A program made the translations under genes and the position numbers. The notes under the pieces were generated by a model that was not told the origin of the DNA, did no database searches, and saw only the letters and a list, made by a program, of their open reading frames with translations. A stretch of 64,000 nucleotides of DNA from Candidatus Sumerlaeaceae bacterium (GTDB lineage Bacteria > Sumerlaeota > Sumerlaeia > Sumerlaeales > Sumerlaeaceae): contig JBMFRB010000003.1 in the NCBI GenBank assembly GCA_049968255.1, positions 199,385-263,384 of the forward strand. The letters are read 5' to 3'. Positions within the stretch are counted from its first letter, which is position 1; the number at the start of each line of letters is the position of its first letter. This document shows positions 28,601 through 32,063 of the stretch, one piece after another.

Positions 28601-31600
28601 CGACGACGAACTTGAAACACTACGGCGCGCTGTGGCACTGGTGCCGACGGAACGCCAAGTGCGGTTGCGCCTAGTGAATGCTCTCATTGAGAGAGGCGAT
28701 CGTGAAGCGGCGGTCCTCCAGCTCGAGGATCTCGCAGCCGCACTCATGACGAGCAAAGACTATGAGAACGCGCTCGAAGTTCTCAACCGGATCATCGAAG
28801 AATTTCCCTCGCGCCTTGGCGCACGACGCATGCGGGCAGAGGTCTACTCCGCATTGGGCCAGAACAAGGCTGCGCAAGAGGATCTCAATGTCTTTTATGT
28901 GAAAAGTTTGCTCCGCCAGGCGGATGACTATCACACGAAAAACGATTTCACACGCGAGGCTGCTACCCTTCGCGAGGCTCTAAATATTATTCCATCAGAC
29001 GAAGAACTCCTGCGTCGCATTCGCTCAGTAGAGTTTGAGGCGGGCGAACTCGATCGGGCGTGCTCAACGACGCTCGAATTAGCTAAGCTTTTGACCTGTC
29101 AGAATCGTCCCGATGATGCGCTGGAACTGCTGCGCGAAACGCACACGCGGGTGCCAGACAACCTTGTCGTTGCTGAGCAGTTGTTCGAAACGCTTGCAGC
29201 GAGGCGTTTGAACGAGGAAGCCGCGATGCTGGGAGAGACGCTTGCCGAACTCTACCGTGCCGCTGGCGAGAGCGGCAAAGCCCTCGCTGCGTTCAGTAGG
29301 GCTGTGGATCTTGCCTCGGATAGCGAGCAGGCGCGCCTGCGCTTCGCCCAGTTCCTCGAGCGCGCCGGTGAAACCGCCCAAGCGGTGGCGACATATTTGG
29401 CCTTGGCACGGCAAGCCATTGAACGAAGCGATTTGAGTTTGGCTCAAGTGCACTACGAGCAAGCTTTGCGTATCGACCCATCGTGCGTGCCTGCGCATGA
29501 GGGAATGGCCGAAGTGGCGGCACGTCGCGGCAATCACCCAGAGCAAGCGGTGTGGCTACAAAAACTTGCCGAGATTTGGGTCGGCCAAAAGGCCACCGAA
29601 GAAGCCATCGACGCTTTGCGTCGCGCAATTTACGCAGACCCCAGGCGAATAGATCTGCGGCAGCATCTCATTGAGCTGCTGGAGAAAGCACAACGGCCAG
29701 CCGATGCTGTGGCAGAGCTTCATGCGCTGGCCGATGTGCTGACACAGGAAGGCCGCCAGGCCGAAGCGCTCGCGGCCGAAGAACGAGCTGTAGCCTTGTG
29801 CCCAAAAGATCCGAAGTCGGCTCGGCGTCTGGCGGAAATGCTTATCATGCTCAACGAAGTCGAGCGTGGTGTGAATGAGTTCGAACGGCTCAGCGGCCTG
29901 TATGCGGAGCTCGGCGAGTATCCGCAGGCGCTAGCTGTGCTCGAGGAAGCACAAACGCTTGCGCCGGCCCGCCTAAGCGTGCGCCGATTGAAAGCCGAGA
30001 TCTACGAGCGTATGGGCGAGACCGCCCAGGCTGAAGAGGAACGTCGCCAGTTCGAAGTGGCCAAATCGCTGCAGGAGGCAGAAGTCGCTCGCGAGCGCAA
30101 CGACTTCAAAGCTGAGAAGCGGGCGCTGCGCAAGGCACTCGAGGTGGCCCCTCAGGATGAAGGCGTGTGGCTTTTGCTCATTCGTTGTCATCGCGACCTC
30201 GGGGATACTCAGGCCGAGGTGGATGCGTATCTAAAATTGGCGGAAGTGCAGCGTGAGAAACACGGGCTCGAGAAGGCTATGGCCACACTCGAACAGGCGT
30301 ATGCCCAACAGCCGAATGAAGAGCGCCTTGTGCAGCGCCTGTTCGAGTTAGCGCGCGAGCGTCGCGACGACGTCGCCGTGCGCCGATATGGCGAGCGCCT
30401 CATCGAGCTAGCACAGAACAGGACGGACGCAGTCGAGCGCACCATCACGGTGTACGATGAGCTTCTGAGTTACGCTCCGCTGGATGCTGATCTCTATTTG
30501 GAAGCGGCTGATCATTGTGCTCGTGTGGCGCGTCCGGCCGAAGCGCTAGAGCGACTTCATCGGGGCGCGGACCTGTTCGCAGAGGCTGAGCGTTGGGCTG
30601 ATGCCGAGCGGCTTCTGCTGCGCACCCTCGAGATGAACCCCAAATCCACCGAAAGCCTTGCGCGATTGGTGCGTCTTTATGAGCGCGTGGGACGTACGGA
30701 TGAATTCGAGCGGCGGTTACTGGAACTGGCCAAAGCTTACGACGAAAACGGCGAGCGTCCCCATGCCATCGAGACCGTGCGCCGCCTCACACTCGTCTCT
30801 CCAGACAATGTCGAGGCGCGCCGGTACTTGGTACGTTTACTCGCTGCTGCGGAACAAAAACATGCAGCCATCGAGGAACAGCTCGCGCTAGTTTTCCTTC
30901 TTCGCCAGCAGGGAGCGCTTTCGGACGCCGTGGAGGCAGCACGCGATGCCGTGGCTATGAGCGAAGGCAGCGACCGTGCAAGGCGAGCTCTGGCCGAGTG
31001 CTTGTTGGCCGCTGGAAATACCGATGCAGCAAACGCAGAACTGGAGGATCTCGCAAAATCATGCGTCGAGCGAGGTGACCTGCAGGAGGCGTTGCAAGTG
31101 CTCGACGAAATCATTGAGCGCACCCCCCAGCGCATGAGCACTCGTGTCCTGCGTGCCGAAGTTTACGTGAAGCTCGGTCAGGCCGAACGGGCGCTCGAAG
31201 AGTATCGTCAGATATCAACCGCAGTAGCGGCTGGAGCCATGACCTCAGTGGCCGCACCGAGTGCACCCGCCATGCCCTCGCTGCAGATTGTGTCCGAATA
31301 CGATTTCGAGCATTTCGTTGTGGGGGCTAACAATAATTTCGCCTATGCGACCGCCCTTGCCGTGGCACGTGCCCCAGCGCAAGCCTATAATCCGCTGTTC
31401 ATTTATAGCGATGTGGGACTCGGCAAAACGCATCTTGTGAACGCCATCGCCAACCACATTCTTCGCGAGAACCCAAACGTCCGCATCATCTACACAAATT
31501 CGGAGGACTTTACGGCTGAAGTCGTCGAGGCTATCCAGACCAACACAATCAACCAATTCCGCGCGAAGTACAAATCCGTGGATCTCCTGATTGTGGACGA

Positions 31601-32063
31601 CGTCCAGTTCCTTGCGGGCAAGGAACGCGCGCAGGAAGAATTCTTTCACATCTTCAATGCACTCTTCCAAGCAAAAAAACAAATCGTCATCACAAGCGAT
31701 CGGCCGCCGAAGGACATAGCAAGGCTCGAAAACAGGTTACTTTCGCGCTTTGGCGCTGGGGTGATTGTGGACATTGCCCCGCCTGATCTCGAAACGCGCA
31801 TCGCCATTCTCAACCGAGAAATTGAGCGCGGCGAAGTTGATATTCCCGACGCGGTCGTCCAACTCATCGCCGAAACCATTGATACCAATGTGCGCGAGCT
31901 CAAAGGCGCGTTGAACCAAGTCATGGCGATGCACACGATCCAAGGCAAAGAGATCAACACAGCAAACGTTCGGCAGATGTTGGAGTCACTTTACGCGCGT
32001 CCAACTGCCGTGGAGAAGCAGCCTCCGCAAGAATCGGCGAAAGATAAAAAGAAAAAAAGTTAG
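25605..32063 (+). CDS. Giant multidomain protein: N-terminal CHC2 (DnaG-primase-type) zinc finger, long TPR-like repeat array, C-terminal DnaA-type AAA+ ATPase module (no DnaA domain IV)
   Basis: Uninterrupted 2152-aa ORF, RBS-like AGGA 8 nt upstream of the ATG. N-terminus: CPIHRE...FRCMYSLCKGAAGGTLVELYALAQDIPLEKAVEELAG (primase zinc-binding-domain pattern). Middle: about 1800 aa of Ala/Leu/Glu/Arg-rich helical repeats with TPR-like periodicity. C-terminus: YDFEHFVVGANNNFAYATALAVA...NPLFIYSDVGLGKTHL (Walker A), LLIVDDVQFLAGKERAQEEFFHIFNAL (Walker B), RLLSRFGAGVIVDIAPPDLETRIAIL (box VII Arg finger), NVRELKGAL (sensor II). Ends in a K-rich tail with no HTH domain IV. Confidence 0.85.
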   Translation: MGIYSEKVIRDLNEQLDPRAVLELINYHSDKLQESGETLRGFCPIHRETVFRTLIIDKSKRTFRCMYSLCKGAAGGTLVELYALAQDIPLEKAVEELAGHFQIEVRMTADPEFLEKQAEVAENYLELGFYEDAEKVLREIVEADSNYERAHRGLLEVYKHLGNTEALGEHHGILAQLLIQRGERLAAYEHVKAWAEYQPDAPKAHYLLAEYLREQGDLEAALEEFMAAADLYAAKEDFQAAIDAYRQADSLRLDVVDVVPHVLQIYEQMGKPTEAVAFLSERAEASLLHADFARSAQLLEQALELAPNDPSLRARLCEIAILADTGGDWLPRVFEWAQWFVESGMPEKAVQVYERVLGAQPTNEEAVERLRALYAAMGRTEDALGLRVRAARVALDAKEFATARKELQAILEEKPDHAAALELLAEVNLAAGHRKEAADCLARLARVCVANRDFSKAVSQMERVLSLVPDDPRFLLDRAEILENWASTGNVRARQQAVEAFEALGDRYAQTDPQKACDMYRRSEACAPPSAQLLLKQARCQAKLRAFDAAREYLQRACDELVAVGQPDVAVEAAREIAAMAPHDHGLQRYLIELLEVIGRIPEAVEVAMLQADAAAQRAEKERVFEYLNYALALDPDHIPAIEALALHYHGTGDIASYCDVLLRLANANEQRGNITGAVAALERVVDERPEDVMALGRLANLHLNLGNAAKSRAYRLELAQIHHRRGALESEREILRALLEEDPEEENVLAALIDCEFGLGNREQACARAVELARLQMKRGFAAQARTTLEKAIAKEPDDLGVNRLLFELVRQLGSAQETVERGLHLVELLQLYEQLDDAVAVFEQTTEADPNNFELFRKYVAFLREIGRTEETLEKLFAIARRLRASGQFEEAEKALLEIEQSRPLDIPELEEALSLYEQWGKPEQFAQRAIELARTYETSGQDKKTLTLLRRALKVTNGHPEVRRELAEAYARQGRPADAVRELVQLADAFVGAGKRDDELETLRRAVALVPTERQVRLRLVNALIERGDREAAVLQLEDLAAALMTSKDYENALEVLNRIIEEFPSRLGARRMRAEVYSALGQNKAAQEDLNVFYVKSLLRQADDYHTKNDFTREAATLREALNIIPSDEELLRRIRSVEFEAGELDRACSTTLELAKLLTCQNRPDDALELLRETHTRVPDNLVVAEQLFETLAARRLNEEAAMLGETLAELYRAAGESGKALAAFSRAVDLASDSEQARLRFAQFLERAGETAQAVATYLALARQAIERSDLSLAQVHYEQALRIDPSCVPAHEGMAEVAARRGNHPEQAVWLQKLAEIWVGQKATEEAIDALRRAIYADPRRIDLRQHLIELLEKAQRPADAVAELHALADVLTQEGRQAEALAAEERAVALCPKDPKSARRLAEMLIMLNEVERGVNEFERLSGLYAELGEYPQALAVLEEAQTLAPARLSVRRLKAEIYERMGETAQAEEERRQFEVAKSLQEAEVARERNDFKAEKRALRKALEVAPQDEGVWLLLIRCHRDLGDTQAEVDAYLKLAEVQREKHGLEKAMATLEQAYAQQPNEERLVQRLFELARERRDDVAVRRYGERLIELAQNRTDAVERTITVYDELLSYAPLDADLYLEAADHCARVARPAEALERLHRGADLFAEAERWADAERLLLRTLEMNPKSTESLARLVRLYERVGRTDEFERRLLELAKAYDENGERPHAIETVRRLTLVSPDNVEARRYLVRLLAAAEQKHAAIEEQLALVFLLRQQGALSDAVEAARDAVAMSEGSDRARRALAECLLAAGNTDAANAELEDLAKSCVERGDLQEALQVLDEIIERTPQRMSTRVLRAEVYVKLGQAERALEEYRQISTAVAAGAMTSVAAPSAPAMPSLQIVSEYDFEHFVVGANNNFAYATALAVARAPAQAYNPLFIYSDVGLGKTHLVNAIANHILRENPNVRIIYTNSEDFTAEVVEAIQTNTINQFRAKYKSVDLLIVDDVQFLAGKERAQEEFFHIFNALFQAKKQIVITSDRPPKDIARLENRLLSRFGAGVIVDIAPPDLETRIAILNREIERGEVDIPDAVVQLIAETIDTNVRELKGALNQVMAMHTIQGKEINTANVRQMLESLYARPTAVEKQPPQESAKDKKKKS

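Follow-up and report, generated by a model that had tools for sequence, protein, structure and literature searches.

A 64,000-nucleotide stretch of the genome of a Candidatus Sumerlaeaceae bacterium (GenBank assembly GCA_049968255.1, contig JBMFRB010000003.1, forward-strand positions 199,385 to 263,384; hereafter the window) encodes a giant protein, P0001, in which an intact AAA+ domain III of the DnaA type is carried on a very large tetratricopeptide repeat (TPR) scaffold headed by a DnaG-type zinc ribbon. The fusion looks like a maintained, working paralog rather than a broken relic, because it occurs phylum-wide alongside ordinary DnaA. It was found in 75/75 genomes of the phylum Candidatus Sumerlaeota that were searched, each time with a large open frame and in independent metagenome-assembled genomes (MAGs), and each of the same 75 genomes encodes a separate canonical DnaA of ~450-600 aa. 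This constant pairing suggests that the fusion has kept a role of its own alongside DnaA. DnaA paralogs other than Hda are, to our knowledge, barely described, and a literature search found no paper on TPR-DnaA or MshEN-DnaA fusions, with the Sumerlaeota genome paper silent on them. An intact DnaA domain III kept by a whole phylum beside canonical DnaA, and mounted on a zinc ribbon and huge TPR scaffold, offers a testable case of reuse of the initiator AAA+ engine. The fusion would illustrate co-option of replication-initiator ATPases and might bring to light an unfamiliar way of regulating DnaA in a phylum without cultured members.

Architecture of the fusion protein

The gene occupies window positions 25605-32063 on the plus strand, stop codon included (features of P0001 given below are on this strand), and its reading frame is uninterrupted by any frameshift. 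From N- to C-terminus, the 2152-aa product (~242 kDa, pI 5.1) consists of a DnaG-type CHC2 zinc ribbon, a TPR superhelix of ~1,730 aa, the DnaA AAA+ domain III and a short Lys-rich tail. P0001 is predicted to be a soluble, cytoplasmic protein because analysis of its sequence found no transmembrane segment or signal peptide. Homologs of the same architecture are numerous, carry the names Candidatus Sumerlaeota or Sumerlaeaceae, and fall into two length classes of ~1360 aa and ~2150 aa. Near relatives of P0001 align over their full length.

An intact DnaA-type AAA+ module

The AAA+ domain with its lid helices spans residues ~1860-2131 (31182-31997). Pfam Bac_DnaA (PF00308) matches residues 1898-2056, covering all 162 positions of the model with an E value of 3.4e-66. 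The NCBIfam DnaA model TIGR00362 gives 343.4 bits, just below a cut-off of 343.9 that was set for the whole protein. Profiles of the IstB/DnaI type match far more weakly than those of DnaA.

An earlier note on this stretch, made from its letters alone, had read Walker A, Walker B, box VII arginine finger and sensor II motifs in the module and judged it apparently catalytically intact. Translation of the open reading frame (ORF) and residue conservation scored across 120 homologs bear out both statements, with the arginine finger assigned here to box VIII. Walker A, the P-loop, reads GLGKTHL (residues 1938-1944), and its GLGKT portion (31416-31430; K1941, T1942) is invariant in 120/120 homologs. 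Walker B, LLIVDDVQF (residues 1994-2002; 31584-31610), is nearly as constant: D1999 is present in all 120, D1998 is Asp in 118 and Glu in 2, and the position of Q2001 holds Gln in 106 and His in 14. The box VIII stretch reads RLLSRFGAG...DIAPPDLETRIAIL; within its RLLSRF motif (31734-31751), R2044 is kept in 119/120 homologs and the arginine finger R2048 in 116/120, with Lys in the other 4. Sensor II, NVRELKGAL (31887-31913), retains R2097 in 120/120, and sensor I D2032 and box VI R2065 are likewise invariant. Chance occurrence of these motifs is ruled out on comparative grounds, because the catalytic residues are conserved across the 120 homologs and every genome of the phylum searched carries the fusion. 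By the same measure of conservation, the catalytic and trans-acting residues of the module are held under purifying selection phylum-wide.

Limits of the module were set by alignment with the canonical DnaA of the same genome (L001, 479 aa). P0001 spans domain III of this protein without a gap, the region of the initiator-specific motif (ISM) included, and ends where the DnaA lid ends; the domain IV helix-turn-helix (HTH) region of L001 finds no counterpart. Neither the DnaA-box-binding HTH of domain IV (Bac_DnaA_C) nor domain I (DnaA_N) was found in P0001, and domain II is also missing. Thus, the earlier description of a module lacking domains I, II and IV holds, but it had overlooked the DnaG-type zinc ribbon that, with the TPRs, occupies the N-terminus instead. 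Behind the lid is a C-terminal tail (31998-32063, including the stop codon) ending in ESAKDKKKKS. The distance from the sensor II Arg to the C-terminus is 55 aa, not about 45 aa as first estimated. The Lys-rich tail reported at this end is present, but as a feature restricted to the 2150-aa subclade; 1360-aa members stop directly after the lid helix.

To view the module in three dimensions, residues 1761-2152 were modeled with AlphaFold2 (AF2) from a 38-sequence alignment, giving a mean predicted local distance difference test score of 86.5. The model displays a full AAA+ fold, C-terminal lid helices, and two helices between beta2 and beta3 (model residues 206-218 and 222-230) that correspond to the ISM (P0001 residues ~1955-1990; 31469-31574). 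Absence of the ISM had been put forward as a finding that would speak against a DnaA-type module; it is present by the gap-free alignment, the model and residue conservation. In the Bacillus subtilis DnaA oligomer, ISM residues I190, I193 and R202 contact single-stranded DNA (PMC10721633). Their counterparts in P0001 are V1974, I1977 and R1986, and the residue types are kept across the family (V/I at 1974). From this correspondence we infer that the module could bind single-stranded DNA via its ISM.

Foldseek placed B. subtilis DnaA domain III (8bv3) as the best match to the module, with 52% identity and a template modeling (TM) score of 0.91 over the target, and Thermotoga maritima DnaA (2z4r) and Aquifex aeolicus DnaA (2hcb) were further leading matches. 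Compared with these structures and B. subtilis 8btg, P0001 shares the fold, the ISM and all AAA+ motifs at ~45-52% identity. Given 52% identity to B. subtilis DnaA, the residues of the interface by which DnaA protomers stack are retained. P0001 departs from DnaA in lacking domain I, the domain II linker and domain IV, and in bearing a zinc ribbon and ~1,700 aa of TPR in their stead. The absent domain I is the part of DnaA that makes contacts with the helicase and with DiaA/HobA.

Hda is a known precedent for such a truncated module. A regulatory inactivator of DnaA, thought to act on it via AAA+ contacts, Hda (e.g., Shewanella Hda, 3bos) is, like the P0001 module, a DnaA-related AAA+ protein with domain III only and without the DNA-binding domain IV. 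The two nonetheless differ in profile score, structural ranking and clamp motif, and P0001 has in addition the giant TPR region and zinc ribbon, consistent with the earlier remark that tethering to a very large TPR scaffold is unlike Hda. The NCBIfam Hda model TIGR03420 gives 93.3 bits, far from its cut-off of 194.8. In Foldseek, the matches to Hda structures come after those to DnaA domain III and share 17-20% identity with the module. A beta-clamp-binding motif, for which the earlier note had advised a test, was not found at the P0001 N-terminus. An Hda identity was consequently rejected (93 versus 343 bits for DnaA, lower structural rank, no clamp motif). Helicase loaders of the DnaC/DnaI type are also AAA+ ATPases of the initiator clade and act in DNA replication, but they constitute a distinct family, represented in this genome by a separate gene (L003), and P0001 scores far better to DnaA than to DnaI. 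Collectively, profiles, alignment and structural model identify the module as an intact DnaA-type AAA+ unit and not Hda.

A zinc ribbon and TPR scaffold family

The N-terminal zinc ribbon (residues 6-107; 25620-25925) was recognized by Pfam CHC2 (PF01807), by conservation of its metal ligands, and by alignment of the N-terminal 100 aa with the zinc-binding domain of the genome's own DnaG (E 3e-11). Predicted zinc ligands C43, H46, C65 and C70, arranged as C-x2-H-x18-C-x4-C, are encoded at 25731-25814; all four, along with P44, are invariant in 24 diverse homologs. P0001 shares the CxxH...C ligands with DnaG but has a second knuckle of C-x4-C where DnaG has C-x2-C, and it lacks a TOPRIM or RNA polymerase domain.

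Residues ~110-1840 (25932-31124) form the TPR superhelix, which is matched by many TPR Pfam families. Two paralogs in the same genome, one of 2603 aa (L082:1864-9675:-, contig C1) and one of 481 aa (L083:3958-5403:-, contig C10), have the same N-terminal zinc ribbon and TPRs but no AAA+ domain. BLASTP of P0001 against the 2603-aa paralog showed 23-25% identity over ~1,100 aa of TPR, with the best agreement at the zinc ribbon. Because these homologous paralogs lack the AAA+ domain, P0001 is best classified, on sequence grounds, as a member of a zinc-ribbon/TPR scaffold family that acquired DnaA domain III. A scan across GTDB with a 14-sequence alignment of the N-terminal module found it solely in Sumerlaeota/BRC1 and unnamed bins, often as two copies per genome.

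Relationship to other DnaA paralogs

Phylogeny of the module was assessed with an IQ-TREE analysis of 70 domain III sequences, rooted on the genome's DnaI. TPR-fusion domains formed one clade (100% bootstrap, 99% Shimodaira-Hasegawa-like approximate likelihood ratio test [SH-aLRT]), and canonical DnaAs, including that of the same genome and one with domain IV, formed a group that excludes the fusions (85% bootstrap, 93% SH-aLRT). Thus, P0001 represents a separate paralog clade with a canonical DnaA beside it in every genome. The earlier note had named placement outside the DnaA/Hda clade as a result that would refute its reading; the module instead falls within the DnaA family and not with Hda. 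The fusion clade sits loosely with other domain-IV-less DnaA paralogs (MshEN, DUF835 and tandem AAA+ proteins), and the tree does not settle deep order among the paralog clades. Constraining the fusions as sister to the genome's own DnaA cost 25.6 log-likelihood units (p-AU 0.08). An origin of the fusion by recent duplication of the DnaA of this lineage is therefore disfavored but not rejected, and the module is probably an older paralog rather than a recent copy.

A wider search of 1.84 billion cluster representatives returned 21,598 matches. Beyond TPR fusions and canonical DnaAs, these included varied domain III proteins without domain IV. Tandem double-AAA+ proteins of ~650-700 aa (P0121, P0122 and similar) contain two copies of DnaA domain III without domain IV, and their second domains form a well-supported clade of their own in the tree. 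Proteins of 1900-2000 aa in which DnaA domain III is fused to MshEN lie inside a type IV pilus/type II secretion system cluster. In one such locus (L015; GCA_900174595.1, FWPV01000121.1, genes at 4517-15985), three adjoining MshEN genes have one or two domain III copies, with one product of 1994 aa. The cluster also encodes an A24 prepilin peptidase, T2SSE ATPases, T2SSF, and a PilS-like sensor kinase with a sigma-54 regulator (a PilS/PilR pair). This arrangement suggests recruitment of DnaA-type AAA+ modules to pilus machinery under control of the cyclic di-GMP (c-di-GMP) type. Additional domain-IV-less proteins (P0185, P0212, P0178, P0233, P0214 and P0219) include forms with an N-terminal MshEN (454 aa), others whose C-terminus bears a zinc ribbon (490 aa) or DUF835 (~750 aa), and some with unannotated extensions; the tree groups all of them with the paralog clades and none with canonical DnaA. 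The MshEN-fused modules of pilus clusters and the tandem proteins suggest a broader family that may merit separate study.

Proposed function of the fusion

Judged by its retained residues, the module most likely binds and hydrolyzes ATP and forms DnaA-like oligomers by head-to-tail stacking, in which the arginine finger and sensor II would act in trans, and the ISM probably engages single-stranded DNA. These activities are proposed because the relevant residues are conserved phylum-wide, the ISM is intact, and the predicted soluble scaffold bears a DnaG-type zinc ribbon. Without domain IV, the fusion should be unable to locate DnaA boxes alone, and we tentatively assign it an accessory role to canonical DnaA for this reason. 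It would join or cap canonical DnaA-ATP oligomers at the origin, with the TPR superhelix and zinc ribbon recruiting other proteins or DNA, and so modulate initiation in the manner of Hda while belonging to another lineage. We put forward this model, of a fusion that joins or caps DnaA oligomers and modulates initiation while its TPRs recruit partners, as a tentative one, and the link to initiation is its least certain part.

Several observations weigh against this model and lend no support to the Hda-like regulatory role for which the earlier note had cited a precedent. Replication genes were not found beside the fusion in the window, where the neighbors are bioB and the genes for a radical SAM enzyme and for a membrane protein, and the neighborhood in one relative is likewise unrelated to replication. 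At the N-terminus of P0001 there is no QL[SD]LF-like clamp-binding motif as in Hda; the only similar sequence is QLALVF, inside the TPR region at residue 1759. The trees leave the origin of the fusion paralog unsettled. Finally, type IV pilus clusters contain related domain-IV-less DnaA paralogs fused to MshEN, so that modules of this family have on at least one occasion been put to use outside replication.

The lack of replication neighbors would also fit a DNA-processing ATPase that operates apart from DnaA, forming ISM-based filaments on single-stranded DNA in replication restart, repair or chromosome organization while the zinc ribbon and TPRs recruit partners. DNA contact is indicated by the ISM and zinc ribbon, and because the genome has canonical DnaA, DnaG and a DnaI-like loader as separate proteins, the cell does not need the fusion for the part of initiator. 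We nevertheless regard such an enzyme as rather doubtful, as no DNA-repair domains or neighbors accompany the module and ISM residues could be kept merely for the fold. Conservation of those DNA-binding-type residues, together with the DNA-associated fold of the zinc ribbon, weighs in turn against a module that does not act on DNA at all, but serves as an ATP-driven oligomerization switch. Such a module would have been taken up by a TPR scaffold as a generic unit of ATP-dependent assembly, for example at the cell envelope or within a protein complex, as seems to be the case for the MshEN-DnaA paralogs of pilus operons. A switch of this kind would explain why domain-IV-less DnaA modules are joined to several unrelated partners (MshEN in pilus/type II secretion clusters, DUF835, tandem copies) and is compatible with a TPR scaffold family that also occurs without the AAA+ domain; on balance, we consider it unlikely. 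Because P0001 combines two DNA-associated modules, the ISM and the DnaG-type zinc ribbon, we favor a DNA-linked role.

Nothing of substance speaks for a non-functional relic or a misassembly, which we deem highly improbable. The ORF is intact, close relatives align over their full length, and independent MAGs are represented among the 75/75 phylum genomes with the fusion. This distribution, and catalytic residues that stay constant over 120 homologs, led us to reject both. A broader and more speculative proposal takes in the other paralogs. It holds that the fusion belongs to an undescribed, ancient superfamily of domain-IV-less DnaA domain III paralogs (TPR, MshEN c-di-GMP-domain, tandem and DUF835 forms), in which the initiator engine was repeatedly recruited as an ATP-dependent assembly switch, and that the Sumerlaeota TPR member is a scaffold that co-assembles with DnaA and connects the oligomer formed at the origin with some large protein complex. 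As a whole, this scenario is conceivable but doubtful.

Genomic context

The window's genome comprises 3.12 Mb in 31 contigs and encodes canonical replication proteins separately from the fusion. P0001 is not the sole DnaA copy of the genome, as the cell's replication initiator would be, because a full canonical DnaA is encoded in the same genome (C2:450260-451612, 520.9 bits), as in all 75 relatives. DnaG primase (C1:347348) and the DnaI/DnaC-like helicase loader (L003:1258-1953, plus strand, contig C1; 231 aa) are likewise separate from the fusion. The loader has an N-terminal CxxC...CxC zinc knuckle and only a weak match to TIGR00362 (37 bits). The canonical DnaA gene lies close to a contig end, where local GC skew is weakly positive and without a clear origin-like switch; oriC was not located in the assembly.

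Upstream of the fusion is the biotin synthase gene bioB (23984-25054, plus strand), and downstream are a convergent gene for a radical SAM enzyme (32109-33230, minus strand) and the membrane-protein gene. GC skew turns from positive to negative at the fusion gene (contig C3, ~225-232 kb; window ~26,000-34,000), marking a putative replication terminus. In a closed relative (G066), which was crudely sampled, the GC-skew profile was noisy and the terminus position was not confirmed, and the terminus idea was set aside. No RNA run with the stretch was listed, which speaks neither for nor against expression. The DNA runs containing the stretch are from hot-spring metagenomes only.

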